IMG/VR virus record: IMGVR_UViG_3300047159_000056
Coordinates: 96,001-160,000 of that record
DNA: 64,000 nt
From: a virus
Lineage: Duplodnaviria > Caudoviricetes
Reading direction: 5' to 3' (one strand)
The notes below the pieces were generated by a model that searched no databases, was not told the DNA's origin, and worked only from the letters and a program-made list of their open reading frames with translations. Below are positions 10,701 to 62,165 of the stretch, piece by piece (position 1 is the first letter of the stretch; every line of letters begins with the position of its first letter). A program made the translations under genes and the position numbers.

Positions 10701-13700
10701 TTTTCCTGTTGAAGAATAAGTATCATAATCAAGGGTAACATTATCTCCGTCAATTATTATAGAACTGTCAGATATACCAGATGCTAAGGGAATAAATTTA
10801 GTAATTGTTTCTAGATAAGATTTATAGTAGATAGTGTGACTGCTGAGGGCTCCAGATGACGGTAAGAATATATCATCAGCTGCTCCTCCAGAAATATCAG
10901 AACTTAACATACTAATATTTGTATCTATTACAGGACTCTCAAATGAATTACCACTATCTGATTTCTTCAAGTAGTATTTTCTATGTAAGGGTATATAGAT
11001 TGAAGTATTATCCCCAAGATTTATTACCTTTATATAAGTTCTAAGAGTTTGTTCTACTACATTAAAAGTATCCCTCTCATTACCATAGAAAGAGAAACAA
11101 ACCTCTCTACCAGTTATTGTATTAAACGAACCTTCATCAACAGAAAGTATTGTTGGCTTAGGAACATTTAATTCAGTGTCATAGAAATAGAAATGATCTA
11201 GAGTATTAGTATCCTCCAAGAGAACCCTATAATTATCTGTGCTCTTTACATATATTTTATAAAGACCAATATGATCAAGTTCTAGTGGTGTTTCATCTTG
11301 TATTTCACTTAGGAGACCATCACTGCCTAAGACATAAACCTGAAGAGTAGTAGTTGGTTCTTTTCCCTCCATCTGTATAGGAAGTTCAGCTGTAGAACCA
11401 TCACTAAGCTGATTTTTCCAGTCACTAAACATTGCAACCTTAGACTCATACTTAGTAGCTATTCTTCTAATATAGAGGCTATCCATACTATAATCTTGGG
11501 AATCTTGTGGTATTGTAGTTGTACCTAAGTAAGTAACTATAGAACCATCAGGACCCCATTTAGAAGAATCTGTTCCAGTTATTAAGAGATTTCCATAGCC
11601 ATAGTTGTCTCGATCTGTTGATACTGTTACCTCTAAGTCTTTCTTAAATACTTCCCAATAATTAAGACCATCAATTGAACCAACTGTAGAAGCTATATAA
11701 AGTCTTTTTTGTCTCTTATTGTCATTGTCCTTCTGTATTTCACTATTTAGAAACTTAATGCTACTAACTTTTTCCAATGTTTCAGGATTATAGAAGCCAA
11801 TAGTATCTGTTAAGTCTGGCTTTATTATACAGTAAAATTTTTCTACTACAGCATTAGTCTCTTGATTAGTTATGGTTATACTAAATGGAGTATAAACACC
11901 AGTAGTATCTGATTTAGGATACCAAGATGTAGTAGGATATTCACTACCAAGAGTTTTAGAAGTAATCTTTACATATGTTGTTCCAGAACTTTTTGTAGTA
12001 GGATCATCATAGGAGCCAGAAGATTCTATAGAAAAATAACTATTTATAGAACTATCCTCAAGCTCCATTTTTAATCTACCCCATAAACCTACAGTAGCAC
12101 TACCATAAACTCCGGAATATCCTAGTTCATCTGTATGTACGTAGAATGTTTGAGTTTCTGAACCTGCAGACAATCTATCAAATAAGTATAGCCTATAAGA
12201 ATTTCCTGAATTATCAGTATAGAAATATTTAGTAGAACTTTCAATAGTTACATAGTTTCCAGAATCACTCTCTTTCTCCATATTAAAGTATAGGGTGCAA
12301 TCATTATCAGGACTACAATAAATTAAGTCTTCCCAATTATTCTGATCAAAGGACTTATCTGCATTTCTTCTCTTAAATGTTATACTGGCAAATGCAGTAT
12401 TTACCTTATTAGTACAGCTTACCTTTGTTAGTACATTAAAACTTTCAGATGTTGCAGGATTAGTCGTTGTAAAAATTACATTATTATTTGTATTATCTAG
12501 TATTACATCAGAGCCGTTGTTATATGTAGCTTCCCAATGATTATAATTTTCTATATAATTTGTTACATAGTTATTGGTTAGCTCTTTTACTCCTAATGTA
12601 CCTGGGAAAGTTAAATTTCTCACTCTTGTCCATGTATTGCCAATAAAAGTAGATATAGTTAGTGGATTAATTATTCTCTGTACACAATAAAATTTAGCTT
12701 CTTCTTTATCAACTTTATCCGCTCCCTCTATACTTATTGTATTTAAGATAAGAATACTAGAACCACCAGAATCTAAGGGGAACCATTTTGTACTTCCTTC
12801 TGTAGATTGGCTAGTAGTTATAGTTATTGTATATTTGTATCTTTTGTTAGTTGAGTCAAATATTCCATCACTAATAGCTGTTGTAAAGTAATTAGTAAAC
12901 GCAGTATCCGAAGAAGCATCGCCAGAACTAATCTTAATATTCTCTTTTGCTACTTTAGACTCAGAGAAAATTATAATAGTACCAGTTTTATTATCTCCGC
13001 CATCTGGATTCCAACCTTTACTTCCTTTTTCTGTATCAAATAGAAGGACTATATGATTATTTCCGCTCTCATCTAGTTGTCCAAGATTAGAGGAATATTC
13101 AACAGACCATTTTAAGTAAGTAACAAATTGAACCACATTGGATTTAATAGTTACTTGTTTTCCTTTTGTATCTCCTATTTCTGATTTAAAAGAAAGATCA
13201 GCTATGAAGTTTGTTCTTTCTACTTTATTTGAATTACTAGTAAAGGTTATTATTTTACTATTTTGATTTATACTGTAATTACTTGTAGTTGTTGTGCTAA
13301 TAGTTCCAGCCATATCGCTAACTTGAACCAGAGCAGTATTTAAGAGTCCTTCCTTACAATCTGATTTTATTAGTGTATAGTTTCCATTCTTAACACGATA
13401 TAAGTCATAAACACAAGTACCTTCTATATTGGCACTATTTCCATTACCGACATAGTAGATATAGTTTCCTGGATAATCTGGTGACTCATTTCCTATTACA
13501 TTTGAAGAGTCTATAGTAATTTTCTTATAGTGTTTATAGGTAGTTATGCTATAAACTTTCTCTCCATTTGAGTCTAAGTAAAGAGGAGAACTATTCTTTA
13601 ATGAATTTCTCTGTCTAAGATATCTACAGTATGAGTTTCTAGTTAGTAGATCTGTATTAGAAAATTCTCCCTCTACTGCTAGGAATGTATTAACTCCATC

Positions 13701-56270: not shown

Positions 56271-58788
56271 TTAAATTTGTCCAGTAAATGCAAGACCCAT
56301 ATCCAAAGCTTCATTGTAAACCTCAATGAACTTAAGACTTCTATTGAATCTGACTTCTATTAGAACTTTCATCCTGTTTGCTCTCTTATCCTCGTCTGTA
56401 TTTAGATCTGCGATTGTAATTCTATAATCGTCAATCGTGTACTGCATCGGTAGGATATTCTGAATAAACCAGTAATCGATCACACTATATGCATCAGAAT
56501 AAAGAGTATCCGTAATATGTCTTCCATGGAATTGACGTAACAGTCTTGGCATTGATTTACTAATTCTAATCATAAGTCTAGAATTACCATCTTCGTCAAG
56601 GATATTATTTTCACTTTCCTTTGTATAGGCATCATTCATAACCCAAGTCTGAATTTGAGTATCCCACATTACTGTATTGATTCTCTTAGAGAGTAGAAGC
56701 TGTCTTTGTCTCTTATTAAATTCAACAACAGGAGACTGCATCTGTGCAACTGCTCTCTGACCAAACATAGACATGAACTCTCTATCAAGTCCTCTATTTC
56801 TATTAACTGATTCCCAATAGATTGTTGAAGGAGCTGCATAGAACTTAAATCCTACTGTGCCAGTATCAACATCCCAAGGAGCTGAGCAATATAATTTATA
56901 GTGGTCTTTAGCCAATCTATTTACTGAGTTTGCAATAGCTAGATAGTTAGTACTATTTACAGTAGAAGCTGCATAGAAGTAGTTACTATTAATAGCCATG
57001 TTAGCCATATAAGACTGGAAAATGCCATTAGTATTTCCAAGGTCTGCTAATCCTTCTGTCTGATATACCTCGTCATCATCAATCTTATCGAGAGCTTTGA
57101 GAAGGTTAATATCAGTTACATTCAAGATATCATACTTAGTTGGATTGATGCTAAGATCAACATAGATTTCCTCAGGTTCAACATCAGTTACCACCTTATA
57201 CTGATAATAAGTTCCAGCAACGTCAGTACCAATCTTAGCGTAATCTCCTTCTTTAGGATTAGTTACAACAGTTGTTAGTTCTGTTTGAGAAGTTGCAGTA
57301 TAGCTAATTGTACCAGAAGCTGTAGTGATATCAGTTAGAGTCGTAGGAACCCACTGTCCACTTGTATACTTAAGATATGTTGCGTTAACTTTACCAACTA
57401 GAGCATAATCACCTTCTTTTGGATTAGTAATATTAGCCAGAGTCTTCCTTAGTTGATACTGCATTCCCATCAGCAATTGTTACACCTGTTGGAGCCGTAG
57501 TAAGAGCAACCCATCCTGTTTTCTTGTCATCAGATACATAGCCATAATAGTCAAGACCTAAGTCTAACATATTATCTGGCAGCTGAACCTGGATCATATT
57601 TAAGAGAGCATTAAGTTCTGCCTCTGTCATATCTCCACGACCAGTGATCTTACCAACATTATAATATTCAGGAATTCCACTTACACTAGGATCTAAGATA
57701 GCTAGCTCATAGAAGTCACGATCAGTAATTGTTGTGCTTAAGACACCACCATTAGCTGCCTTGCTCTTTGCATATGTAGCCAGGACTGATTCTAGTACAA
57801 TATAAGGAGAGTCACCACCAGCATCTGCACTATTTGTACTTAGTTCTTTTGTAACTACTGCATCATGATTGAATCTACGAATTCTAAGCTTAAGATCGCT
57901 ACTAGAATTATAAGCATTAGTTGCATAATTAGGAACATCATCAAAAGAAGATACTGTTACTAAGTCAACTAAGTGCTGATTCTTATTTGTTTCATAAGTC
58001 CAATCAGGTTCACAGATAACTACATAAGATACACCATTAGGGCATCTTGAATCAGTTGTATCAAGGAAGTCCGAGCCAATGTAAACTTCACTAAAGATTA
58101 CACTAGTTGCTGCTGTTGTAACTGAACCGTCTGCATTAATAGCAATTTCTGAAGTACCCTTTTCGTCAGAGTAGAACTTATAGCTAGGTGAGAAGAACTT
58201 AGGAGAATCATTTAAGAAATCAACAAGTTCCTGAAGGTTCTGTACATAATAGTCATACTGAGCACCGGCATCAGTAGTTCTATTACCAATTACACCAACA
58301 TCACCAACTGCAAGACCCCAACCGTCTGTGCTATGTTCTGCGCTATCCTTATCTTCATCAACCACAATCTTGAAAGACTGAACTTTCTTAAGTAATTGAC
58401 CATCTTTTAGGATATATACATTTTTATCTGTCTTACTAAGTGGTTTAGCAAAGTAGATATTGTCACCTTTGAATGCTCTAACAATCAGCAAATTACCAGC
58501 ACCAGCTAATCTATAAGCATTAAGCCACATAGTAGATGCAACAGTGTCTTTACCATTTCCATACAGTGTATCAATAGCTGTCATATAATCTTCTGTTAAA
58601 TCTTTAGAAGCATATGTAGCCAAGAACTCTTTCTGGGATGTAATAAGTGTTGGAGTACTTGGACCAGCATCAGATACAATAGTACATCCGACAATTAGAT
58701 CTTCTCCAGCTGTAGGATTGATAGCAGCAGTTCTAATTTTCTCATGAACGTGAATATACGGTTCAAGAGTTTCTTTCCATTGTGCCAT
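56271..58788 (-). CDS. Major contractile tail sheath protein, split by a one-base insertion near 57440 (track ORFs 57433..58788 and 56271..57476)
   Basis: N-terminal EPYIHVHE..AGPSTPTLITSQKEF; C-terminal RINTV..NSRLMIRI..NRMKVLIEVRF..LKFIEV. Removing one base in GAA GAC TCT GGC TAA gives STKEDLANITNPKEGDYA, matching the downstream repeat TELTTVVTNPKEGDYA; 838 aa. Confidence 0.85.
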
Positions 58789-58820: not shown

Positions 58821-59507
58821 TTAACCAACCTCTACTATATAAATGGGATAGCCAGACTTAATAAATGAATTAGCAATCTCTGATACTAGATCTGAATCAT
58901 TTGTCTTTCCTCCCGATATGGTAGATACAACTATTTCATTGAATTTATCTGACGTGGTATTTGTTTTAATCGCTCCATTAGGTACATTCTTAGAAATTTT
59001 GTCAGTTAATGTTTTTAGTTTATAGTCATTTACAGTATTAATTAAGATCTTTAGGTCATTACTGTATTTATAGATAGCAATGCATACCTTCGTCTTAAGT
59101 TCAGATGCAGCCTTGGGATCTCTTGTAAAATCAATTCCTTCTCTGAATCCTTTTCTCTTAAGATCTGAGATAATTTCTTTCATCATTCTATTATCTACAG
59201 TAGTTGACCTATTGAACTTTTCATTAATATCTCTAACAGCACCACATAAAGCTCCTAATGCTGCTCCAAGGATTAATCCACCACCAGTGATAGCTAAAGA
59301 TCTACGATTAAATCCTCCGCCCATTTGATCATTCTTCTCATTAGAATCTGTCTTTAGGTACTTACTGAGGAATGGTATCTTATCACCAAGACTAGTATGA
59401 CCTAGGACAGCAGAAGATAATGCTCCTGTAGCTGCACCAATCTTAGCCCCATTTAATGTATCAGAGATAATATGACTACTAAATTCTTTTGCTCTAAATT
59501 TAATCAT
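58821..59507 (-). CDS. KxFS-leader glycine-zipper protein
   Basis: MIKFRAKEFS; GAKIGAATGAL and GGGLILGAALGALCG. Confidence 0.75.
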   Translation of the reverse strand: MIKFRAKEFSSHIISDTLNGAKIGAATGALSSAVLGHTSLGDKIPFLSKYLKTDSNEKNDQMGGGFNRRSLAITGGGLILGAALGALCGAVRDINEKFNRSTTVDNRMMKEIISDLKRKGFREGIDFTRDPKAASELKTKVCIAIYKYSNDLKILINTVNDYKLKTLTDKISKNVPNGAIKTNTTSDKFNEIVVSTISGGKTNDSDLVSEIANSFIKSGYPIYIVEVG

Positions 59508-59525: not shown

Positions 59526-59765
59526 TTAAGGATTGGTTGTTGTAGTACCTGATCCTGTTGTTTCTGCTTTAGTTGTACCAATCATAGATACAGTACCATT
59601 GTTATTCTGCTCTTTAACAGCTACGTCAAGAATATCAGAAATAACTTCATCATTGTTTACATCTTCCACAGTAGCAGAAACGATTGCATCATTAACAGTA
59701 GTAGTTGCAGTTCCACCAACAATGTAATACTTCTCTTCGTCGGCGGTTAAACTTCTATTTTCCAT
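59526..59765 (-). CDS. Small acidic Thr-rich protein without the leader
   Basis: 79-aa ORF filling the gap between two leader-family genes. Confidence 0.55.
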   Translation of the reverse strand: MENRSLTADEEKYYIVGGTATTTVNDAIVSATVEDVNNDEVISDILDVAVKEQNNNGTVSMIGTTKAETTGSGTTTTNP

Positions 59766-59782
59766 AATAGTTTATATTTTAT

Positions 59783-60163
59783 TTAGTTATTATCATTACC
59801 AATTCTTCTATGTCTACCTAAGAAACTAGAATTCTTCTTTTTCTTTGGTTGCTGAACTGGCTCCTCTACATGATTTTTATTGAAATTATCCATTGAAGAA
59901 CTAACTCTATTCATTGTAGATGATGTATTCTGTAATTCATTAGTTAGTTTATTCATGGCATCCAACTGCTTATCTTGATAAATTTTATCACTTGCTTTTT
60001 TGTGCTTGGCATCTAGATAGTAAGCTGTTGATAAACCTAAAGAACCCATACCCATAATAGGAGTACCATATTCTTTAAAGGCTCCCCAACCTTTTTTTAA
60101 TCCGCCCTGTACCTTTTTACCAATAATAGCGGCTGAGAATTCTTTTGCTCTGAACCTTATCAT
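59783..60163 (-). CDS. KxFS-leader single-helix membrane/coiled-coil protein
   Basis: MIRFRAKEFS; GTPIMGMGSLGLSTAYY then a coiled coil. Confidence 0.75.
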   Translation of the reverse strand: MIRFRAKEFSAAIIGKKVQGGLKKGWGAFKEYGTPIMGMGSLGLSTAYYLDAKHKKASDKIYQDKQLDAMNKLTNELQNTSSTMNRVSSSMDNFNKNHVEEPVQQPKKKKNSSFLGRHRRIGNDNN

Positions 60164-60181: not shown

Positions 60182-60598
60182 TTAATAGGAGTATCCATCT
60201 CTATTAACCATATTATTTACCCAGTCTTTTCTTTCTCTTCTACCAGCTTGTCTCTTAGCATATGCTAGTCTACTATTAAAGAAATTATTTTCCTGAGCTT
60301 GTTTTCTGCCTTTCAAGTAGGATAGGCCTGCACCAATACCTGCACCTAAGAGAGCTCCCTTCTTAGAACCTAGGAGCATGCCTTTACCAATACCTCCACC
60401 AGCTTTTGAAAATCCTCCCAATACTGTACCAACTGCGGCACCACCTAGAGTACCAGTTATAGCACTTCCGGCAATATCTCCATAATTATGTGTTGGCCTT
60501 TTCTGAGTAGCTAAGATATCGGCATCTTTCATTCTCTTGAGATTGTCTGTATCATCCCATTGAGTAAATATTTTCCTTTTTAAAGTATATTTTGCCAT
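60182..60598 (-). CDS. KxFS-leader glycine-zipper protein
   Basis: MAKYTLKRKIFT; two glycine-zipper helices. Confidence 0.75.
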   Translation of the reverse strand: MAKYTLKRKIFTQWDDTDNLKRMKDADILATQKRPTHNYGDIAGSAITGTLGGAAVGTVLGGFSKAGGGIGKGMLLGSKKGALLGAGIGAGLSYLKGRKQAQENNFFNSRLAYAKRQAGRRERKDWVNNMVNRDGYSY

Positions 60599-60612: not shown

Positions 60613-61848
60613 TTATTGAATAGGAGGTTGATAGTATTGCTGCATATCTTGTTGCTGCTGTTGAACTTGTTTATCTTTAAAGTCTTGATACTTGAATGCA
60701 TTAGGATCAATTGCTCTAGTAGCCTTATCCATAGCCTTCTGTCCGCCTTCCCATCCTACTTTCATCATACCCATACCAACAGGAATAGAAGCAGCCAAGG
60801 CAATCTTAGAAGGCTGAACAACTCCATTCTTATCCAGGAAAGTCATTTTCTTAGCCATAGCCTGTGTCCAACTAGATTTTCCATGTAGTTTAAGATCTTC
60901 AGCAACTGCTTTTACCCCGGCCTTTCCACCTCCCATTGAAAGGTTGGATGCCGTTCCAAGAAGTGTTTGCGCAGGATGATCTCTAAATGTTTTAAATCCA
61001 CTTTTTGTAGCATTCCAGGCAGCCGATGCTCCCTTTTTTATATTTGCTGGTCCATTTTTAAAGAAATTACTAGCTACTGATTTTATTCCATTCATTCTAA
61101 CTAGCCTCATTACTGATGCAGGACTAGCATACTGTTTCTGCTGAGGACCACTAATACCGCTAAGAACTGAGCCCACTTGCTGATCTGGTAATTCTGTGCT
61201 GGCTAATTGATCTTTTATAGCTCTCTTGTCAGCTTTATATGCCATTACAGCAGGAATTGCAGTTAAACCACCAAAAGCTAGAGTCGAAGTCATATTATTT
61301 TTTATAGCTCTTCTTCCAACTTTTAGCCCTCTCCTAGTTGTATCTCCCATAAGTGATGCAAGAGAATATGATTTAGTTCCCGGTTGACTTTGATCTTCGC
61401 CAGTCATAACATCTGTAAGACCACTTTTCTTCATATCATGCTGTATATATTTATTGGCACCATAACCTGCTAATGACATTCCAGCACCAGATACTAAGAG
61501 CCCAGCCATTTTTCCTTTATGTCTACTAGCTAAACCAACCATATCCTTTACAAATAGTTTTCCATTCTTCAGGGTAGTTGGATTAATTAGACCATAAAAT
61601 TTTTCGTGTGGTTTATTTTGCATAATATCTGGAATTTGTCCAACTGCGCTAGGATCTTTTCCAACCTTCTCGGCAATATTATCCAATCTTCTATTCTGTT
61701 CTTTCATAAGATCTGCTTGTCTACTTGCTTCTTCTGCATTTTGTTCATCTGATTTCTTTTGCTGAGCTACACCTAATAATGAACTACCAACTAAGGCACC
61801 ATTTATTAGGAGAGGCAGGAAGAATATTTTTTGTCTGTACCTTATCAT
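60613..61848 (-). CDS. KxFS-leader multi-unit (polyprotein-like) membrane protein
   Basis: MIRYRQKIFF; internal EKFYG, TKSYS and QKQYA each precede a basic amphipathic segment and a hydrophobic helix. Confidence 0.75.
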   Translation of the reverse strand: MIRYRQKIFFLPLLINGALVGSSLLGVAQQKKSDEQNAEEASRQADLMKEQNRRLDNIAEKVGKDPSAVGQIPDIMQNKPHEKFYGLINPTTLKNGKLFVKDMVGLASRHKGKMAGLLVSGAGMSLAGYGANKYIQHDMKKSGLTDVMTGEDQSQPGTKSYSLASLMGDTTRRGLKVGRRAIKNNMTSTLAFGGLTAIPAVMAYKADKRAIKDQLASTELPDQQVGSVLSGISGPQQKQYASPASVMRLVRMNGIKSVASNFFKNGPANIKKGASAAWNATKSGFKTFRDHPAQTLLGTASNLSMGGGKAGVKAVAEDLKLHGKSSWTQAMAKKMTFLDKNGVVQPSKIALAASIPVGMGMMKVGWEGGQKAMDKATRAIDPNAFKYQDFKDKQVQQQQQDMQQYYQPPIQ

Positions 61849-61868
61849 ATATTTCCCTCCTATTTTAT

Positions 61869-62165
61869 TTAGCTCTGGAGAGAATCACTTGCAGACTTTA
61901 GACCTTTACCTAATCCTCTTACAGCAGCACCTTCTACACCAGCACCAACTACACGTCCTAAGATTTCTCCTCCTGGAACACCTAGTCCTGATAGAGTCGA
62001 TCCTATAAATCCACCTACTGGACCCATAGCACCGTGAGCTGCACCAGCAATAGCAGCAGGGGTAGAATCAAGAGCTTTGCCAACTCCTCCAGCTACTCCA
62101 CCTATTGTATTTTGAGCCGCCTCAGCAAATCCAAATGTTTTTCTTTTTAAATGATATGTTGCCAT
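61869..62165 (-). CDS. KxFS-leader glycine-zipper protein
   Basis: MATYHLKRKTFG; almost entirely G/A-rich helices. Confidence 0.75.
   Translation of the reverse strand: MATYHLKRKTFGFAEAAQNTIGGVAGGVGKALDSTPAAIAGAAHGAMGPVGGFIGSTLSGLGVPGGEILGRVVGAGVEGAAVRGLGKGLKSASDSLQS

Follow-up and report, generated by a model that had tools for sequence, protein, structure and literature searches.

The window analysed here is a 64-kb stretch belonging to a 207,396-bp contig. It is AT-rich (about 30-39% GC), and its minus strand carries nearly all of the long ORFs, among them one encoding 411 amino acids, the ATG of which lies 8 nt downstream of AGGAGG, a strong Shine-Dalgarno-like site (window 61849-61870, minus strand). 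This ORF is located within a block of leader-tagged genes, one flank of which is the head module, with capsid, scaffold-like, protease, portal and terminase-like ORFs (read in locus L001), and the other a long "MAQW.ETLEPY" gene. About 28 ORFs of the virion region start with one or another leader type, i.e., MI[KLI][FLP]R.K.[FY]S, MA.Y.LKRK.[FY] or MYIRRK[VL][FY]S. Gene order is kept across 67 related loci from IMG/VR, on contigs of up to about 400 kb, and in all loci read the 411-aa gene has a fixed syntenic place between the capsid gene and the long tail-side MAQW gene. The genes of the block that matter most for what follows are these:

60613-61848, minus strand: the 411-aa ORF, starting MIRYRQKIFF
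60182-60598, minus strand: leader-tagged gene of 138 aa, next downstream; in locus L002 its orthologue and the 411-family gene form an in-frame fusion
59783-60163, minus strand: leader-tagged gene, 126 aa; fused to the orthologue of 58821-59507 in most related loci
58821-59507, minus strand: leader-tagged glycine-zipper gene, 228 aa (PF13441, 29.3 bits); the downstream half of the fusion in relatives

Some peculiarities of the surrounding genes deserve mention in their own right. In the window, the 126-aa and 228-aa genes are separated by an extra ORF, acidic, Thr-rich and leaderless (59526-59765, 79 aa). The L002 orthologue of 61869-62165 (L002:3231-3599) starts MGTFILKRFSTANTTPKSYKLKRKVF, that is, with two tandem leader-like motifs at its N-terminus. 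On the tail side, ORFs 57433-58788 (451 aa) and 56271-57476 (401 aa), both on the minus strand, overlap by 44 nt in different frames and jointly match a single 850-886-aa MAQW.ETLEPY ORF found in related phages (in the L012 protein, residues 1-434 and 447-850). As they match the two halves of one ORF, the MAQW.ETLEPY gene is evidently split by a frameshift in the window's genome, for which an assembly error, a pseudogene and a programmed shift are all possible explanations.

An unannotated family with the leader core inside

A word-indexed search produced 10 relatives of the 411-aa protein, and an exhaustive search produced 131 representatives (50% clustering, E<=1e-3), mostly of 320-450 aa. 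From these, 114 full-length homologues, all from uncultured jumbo phages, were aligned with MAFFT; both the alignment and the AF2 model use the cluster representative P0001, which appears to have one residue unlike the window translation (S260G). Judged by sequence, the 411-aa ORF is the founding member here of an unannotated family in such phages. A scan of the ORF and its nine neighbours gave no Pfam or PHROG match for the ORF, including none to the glycine-zipper families PF13441 and PF13436, and a PHROG scan of all 114 family members gave scattered and inconsistent single matches, two of them weak matches to a spanin PHROG. The PDB held no sequence match, and Foldseek with the model (pLDDT 66) returned nothing at E<=0.001, just long-helix noise. 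A tblastn search of 50,697 phage records had no match for the 411-aa ORF, its 451-aa neighbour or the protease described below, so that no cultured relative was found there, and a text search of the literature with the leader strings and "KxFS" found nothing relevant.

The leader is followed within the chain by three further copies of its core, at the positions where the earlier note had placed them from the letters of the window:

61819-61848, minus strand: N-terminal leader MIRYRQKIFF, residues 1-10; family consensus M-I-K-F-R-Q-K-x-F-[FIV]
61591-61605, minus strand: internal site 1, EKFYG, residues 82-86 (HEKFYG, 61591-61608); family [QE][KR]x[YF][SAG], in a low-pLDDT coil, 73-88
61363-61377, minus strand: internal site 2, TKSYS, residues 158-162; family Q[KR]x[YF][SA], in a low-pLDDT region, 155-195
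61126-61140, minus strand: internal site 3, QKQYA, residues 237-241; family QQ[KR]x[YF][SAG], in low-pLDDT stretches 230-234 and 236-261

In the one sequence, three matches to [KR]x[FY][SAG] against 0.86 expected from shuffles (P 0.056) is a count for which chance is not excludable from the 411-aa sequence alone. It is the family that settles the matter: the motif occurs in at least 20% of sequences at exactly three aligned positions, 83 (78 of the 114), 159 (73) and 238 (99), and since it is conserved at these positions in homologues, coincidence was rejected. Strict matches at the aligned columns are found in 64-87% of sequences per site, the third site being the best conserved, and all three sites are kept in 54 of the 114 when Met or Trp is also accepted at the aromatic position. 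The motif columns have an entropy of 1.1-1.8 bits and 1% gaps, against 2.7-2.9 bits and 29-63% gaps in the flanks, so that each internal site is a low-entropy island directly after a variable, gap-rich linker, and the median spacing from site to site across the family is 76 residues. The linkers were noticed earlier as rich in Q, P and G, and so they are, with a length that varies; in the AF2 model, which is all helical, the sites lie in low-confidence coil between helices. The earlier note had itself named in advance a lack of conservation of the internal motifs in homologues as a finding that would count against its reading, and in the 114-sequence alignment they are kept.

The N-terminus and the three internal sites have in common Q/E at -3, K/R at -2 and F/Y at 0. 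At +1 the internal sites and most other leaders have S, A or G, and the N-terminal copy of the 411-aa family has F, I or V; the leader of the 411-aa protein may for this reason escape removal. Few parts of the family are as well conserved as a different motif, D-[PK]-N-A-[YF]-x-Y-[QE], which does not resemble the leader core and may be a second interaction motif:

60685-60708, minus strand: conserved C-terminal motif, residues 381-388; D381, A384 and Y387 in at least 90% of sequences

Between the sites, the protein is divided into four units:

61606-61818, minus strand: unit 1, residues 11-81; a long acidic to neutral helix, 27-78, after the hydrophobic segment 8-26
61378-61590, minus strand: unit 2, residues 87-157; basic repeat of unit 3, its Gly/Ala-rich helix ending GYGANKYIQHDMKK
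61141-61362, minus strand: unit 3, residues 163-236; basic, homologous to unit 2
60616-61125, minus strand: unit 4, residues 242-411; 18-kDa basic helical C-terminal domain

The earlier note had regarded these as four like units, each with a hydrophobic helix and each mimicking the stand-alone gene 59783-60163, a description that stands only for the middle of the protein. Profile-profile comparison showed that only units 2 (86-157) and 3 (162-236) are true repeats (hhalign probability 89.5%, E 2e-6, 53 columns in register); unit 1 matches none of the others, and the second half of unit 4 weakly resembles units 2 and 3 (E 0.005-0.02). Hydropathy is transmembrane-like only at residues 8-26 (Kyte-Doolittle 1.87), the other Gly/Ala-rich segments reaching about 1.0-1.2. 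The likeness to gene 59783-60163 was not sustained either: BLASTP of the 411-aa protein against the 126-aa product gave a non-significant E of 0.077, with the match in register just after the motif in both, and the unit profiles did not match that gene at all. What they did match, weakly, was a pair of small Gly/Ala-rich proteins with leaders, encoded in the same genome (E 1e-4 and 1e-3), and, at E 0.037, the downstream neighbour. Nor did the units prove to be equivalents of stand-alone genes. Each of the 66 loci encodes the 411-family protein as one ORF, and no split form was found among the 131 representatives, in these loci or in a search for shorter proteins; for units 2-3 that search gave no shorter homologue, and the short matches of the representative search are truncated fragments without leaders. 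What the alignment and the AF2 model do suggest is a polyprotein-like arrangement, with conserved candidate processing sites in linkers between units that would fold separately.

The motif in the head module and inside natural fusions

The motif [KR]x[FY][SAG] is enriched in the virion region as a whole (134-185 kb of the 207-kb genome, 86 seen against 33 expected) and only there, the other three regions being near expectation (55 seen against 60.7 expected, 33 against 25.7 and 14 against 13.7). An acidic, scaffold-like protein of 848 aa has 13 sites where 0.54 would be expected (P 3e-14), a 291-aa protein has five, and a 413-aa protein has four. In the capsid protein of the window's phage the sites occur only in the first ~60 residues, and the same confinement was seen in eight of nine diverse relatives read, the ninth (L063) having one further match at residue 307. 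In the portal-like ORF of 564 aa (L001:11076-12770, minus strand) three copies (QKVFG, SNVFS and NRMFS) lie within the first ~50 residues, which suggests that its product has an N-terminal propeptide; such a propeptide has been reported for giant-phage portals (PMC10052503).

The 413-aa protein is of particular importance:

L001:7213-8454, minus strand: protease-like protein, 413 aa; AF2 model from 35 homologues

It has no match at the sequence level, including in PDB searches with both sequence and profile, and its model matches the T4 gp21 protease (5JBL, probability 1.00, TM 0.60), followed by herpesvirus assemblins. H49, H85 and S134 are invariant, and the disordered linker that joins the protease domain to a helical C-terminal part has four [KR]xFS sites, which are conserved. 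On the strength of this predicted fold, the phage encodes a gp21/assemblin-fold protease in its head module. When the protease domain (1-190) was modelled together with residues 150-250 from the 411-aa protein, the score of 0.01 counted neither way.

The 411-aa protein thus carries a short motif that is common to the propeptide-like region of the capsid protein, the scaffold-like protein and the protease's own linker. The earlier note had offered either a protease site or a repeated docking site as the function of the motif; its presence in the first 60 residues of the capsid protein, along the scaffold-like protein and in the linker of a gp21-fold protease fits better with the former, and the docking alternative fared less well.

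A second line of evidence comes from genes that have become joined. In L002:3614-5521 (P0010) the orthologue of the 411-aa protein is fused in frame to that of 60182-60598 with the leader MNKKYNLKRKTF kept internally, a case that is found on a single 6.4-kb Logan contig. More widespread is the joining of the orthologues of 59783-60163 and 58821-59507, which are one ORF in 60 of 66 loci (L003-L068, at about 11400-12470 in each), a count of contigs that are mostly close relatives and not of independent events, with at least three sequence lineages represented. Its junction reads ...[KR]K[IF]FS-(6-7 aa)-MI[NT]FR[KR]K[DE]FS..., in which a second site precedes an intact internal leader. Long members of the 411-aa family likewise contain VIRFKRKGFS and IKFRQKNYA internally, each after KSYS-type sites. 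In-frame fusions that keep a leader inside the protein indicate that the tag tolerates internal positions, and if the motif is a cleavage code then fused and split genes would yield the same mature products, provided that both flanking sites are cut.

The notion that the leader is a mere translation-start signal was rejected, given that its core is conserved internally and inside fused ORFs. The earlier claim that the motif works independently of its position has, by contrast, gained support, from three internal linker positions in more than 100 homologues and from the whole leaders inside natural in-frame fusions, and the sequences support the view that this short linear motif is conserved and functions, or at the least is tolerated, at any position in the chain.

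Probable maturation cleavage and its alternatives

With the sites, their conservation and location in linkers, the specificity of the motif for the head module, the fold of the protease and the leader-internal fusions in hand, we consider the 411-aa protein to be, rather probably, a leader-tagged core or internal protein in the prohead of a jumbo, myovirus-like phage, diced at its three linker sites by the gp21-fold protease. Three conserved copies of the tag core in flexible linkers make cutting into four pieces the most likely fate of the chain. In this scheme, the 10-residue leader M-I-K-F-R-Q-K-x-F would most likely bring the protein into the prohead, by analogy with the capsid targeting sequence of T4, and the leader core Q-[KR]-x-[FY]-[SAG] in the linkers would most likely be the recognition site of the protease. 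Head maturation would then cut the protein at about 85/86, 161/162 and 240/241. The scissile bond would lie between F/Y and the small residue, for which the Ala/Ser sites of assemblin and the preference of SPN3US gp245 for Ser at P1' are analogies. The predicted pieces, all helical, are of 8.3 kDa (pI 5.8, near neutral), 8.0, 8.4 and 18.4 kDa (the last three with pI 9.7-10.2). The basic charge of units 2-4 would favour their retention on DNA, as with T4 internal proteins, and it is our tentative guess that the basic pieces would stay with the DNA as internal peptides, the N-terminal piece having been the core-binding part. Some points tell against cleavage: conserved helical units would also suit a structural protein that is never cut, the motif is unlike every measured specificity of the gp21 family, it is not kept in every homologue, and its N-terminal copy has no small residue at +1.

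There are precedents. T4 gp22, gp67 and gp68 are cut by gp21 into multiple fragments, most of which leave the head, the propeptide of gp23 is 65 residues long, the protease processes itself, and the measured specificities of the gp21 family all cut after Glu (PMC9026906). As in T4, there is here a gp21-fold protease in the head module and a short motif repeated along a substrate, and the N-terminal ~60 residues of the capsid protein, the scaffold and the protease all carry the same motif; its confinement in the capsid protein matches the gp23 propeptide. T4 differs in cutting after Glu in L/I-x-E, a residue absent from the cut position of the candidate sites here, [QE]-[KR]-x-[FY]-[SAG]; the three T4 proteins have no sequence similarity to the 411-aa protein, which is basic, whereas the scaffold-like protein of its own phage is acidic. 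The conserved sites thus conform neither to the T4-type code nor to the phiKZ-type code (S/A/G-x-E), and, lacking Glu at P1, they make the 411-aa protein a candidate to act like a T4 core protein but not by T4's code.

The leader also has its counterpart in T4, where the capsid targeting sequence is a 10-residue N-terminal tag on IPI-III and Alt (Mullaney and Black 1996, via PMC9026906 and PMC5694885). In both cases a leader of about 10 residues is common to otherwise unrelated proteins of the head module and overlaps a presumed protease site. In those accounts the T4 tag is described only at N-termini, whereas here the core is internal as well and whole leaders lie inside fused ORFs; about 28 genes are tagged here, against a handful in T4.

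Among the giant phages, the propeptide of SPN3US gp53 is cut at no fewer than three sites and the protease cuts itself (PMC10052503, PMC5694885). What is shared with phiKZ (gp175) and SPN3US (gp245, with the inner-body and ejection proteins gp53 and gp54) is that many of a jumbo phage's head proteins would undergo processing, with cuts at multiple sites in some substrates, and the difference is again that their cleavage motif ends in Glu (ALE, ARE). Furthermore, the SPN3US cuts fall in an N-terminal propeptide that is long, and they leave one mature C-terminal domain, while here the sites come about every 76 residues between conserved units. Herpesvirus assemblins, which ranked just below gp21 among the matches to the protease model, are similar in the joining of the protease to a helical, scaffold-like C-terminal part via a linker with cleavage-type sites. 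Assemblin has only two cleavage sites, where it cuts between Ala and Ser, and we know of no multi-unit assemblin substrate of the kind represented by the 411-aa protein.

An alternative with the same cuts and a different purpose is that the 411-aa protein is a true polyprotein that delivers four functional membrane-active peptides into the capsid and then to the host envelope, where, e.g., a DNA channel could be built or opened. Units 2 and 3 are a duplicated module with the motif at the same offset in each, leader-tagged neighbours include a bona fide glycine zipper (PF13441) and proteins with weak tape-measure-like PHROG matches, and fusion and fission of leader and cargo are common in the clade. 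The weak profile matches to small stand-alone proteins point the same way, or may reflect composition only. We think this reading unlikely, since no separate genes for the units turned up in the 131 representatives, the 66 loci or the search for shorter proteins, the 411-aa protein has no glycine-zipper match and a single transmembrane-like segment, and the T4 substrates with cuts throughout their length are proteins of the core, most of their pieces being discarded (PMC9026906). It can be given a bolder form, in which leader plus cargo is a freely recombining module, the leader being both capsid address and cut mark wherever it stands in a chain, so that genes would fuse or split at leader boundaries with their mature products unchanged, and the 411-aa gene would encode a fixed polyprotein of four modules, by which small basic membrane-active peptides would be loaded into the head in a set ratio and then ejected into the host. 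We would give it the same low standing.

Still less probable is that the motif is a repeated docking element, with copies that bind scaffold, core or the inner surface of the capsid, raise avidity or cross-link the core, and leave the protein whole. The T4 capsid targeting sequence is primarily a binding tag (PMC9026906), the N-terminal copy here is without the small +1 residue of the internal sites, and full leaders, beyond their cores, persist inside some long family members. A binding tag gives no reason, however, for the propeptide-like sites of the capsid protein, the 13 sites of the scaffold-like protein and the conserved cluster in the protease linker; the motif stands at the classic places of maturation cuts, with which a pure docking tag fits poorly.

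The remaining readings are disfavoured. That the motif is a structural feature of an internal repeat (e.g., a helix cap) or a coincidence with no shared recognition factor would suit the repetition of units 2 and 3 and the P of 0.056 for the single sequence, but it is highly improbable when the units bordered by sites 1 and 3 are not homologous, the model has the motif in low-confidence coil, and the same motif is found in many unrelated head proteins and as an N-terminal leader. Equally remote is a membrane or secreted protein outside the virion, its N-terminus a signal peptide or anchor and its role in lysis or at the site of assembly, for although MIRYRQK and the ensuing hydrophobic stretch (1.87) ending GVA-QQ resemble a signal peptide, and two family members have the weak spanin matches mentioned above, the same leader is on many proteins without a hydrophobic stretch, the place of the gene between the capsid and MAQW genes is fixed in all loci read, and the PHROG matches are scattered and inconsistent.

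Returning to the predicted dicing of a core or internal protein, head maturation by multi-site cutting of core proteins and a 10-residue capsid tag were both known already. What is new is a motif with an aromatic and a small residue instead of Glu at the predicted cut, a family that lacks annotation, and tagged genes that fuse and split at leader boundaries. For the 411-aa ORF alone the gain is modest: a conserved gene without annotation becomes a predicted substrate for protease cutting at multiple sites. Natural fusions that have a leader in their interior bear on whether a capsid tag functions away from the N-terminus, and on the use of such tags to load phage heads with foreign proteins. 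The gp21/assemblin family would, if the cuts are real, gain a specificity with an aromatic residue, and not Glu or Ala, at the cut, and for a large clade of uncultured jumbo phages, with contigs of 200-400 kb, the mature head proteome would become readable from sequence.
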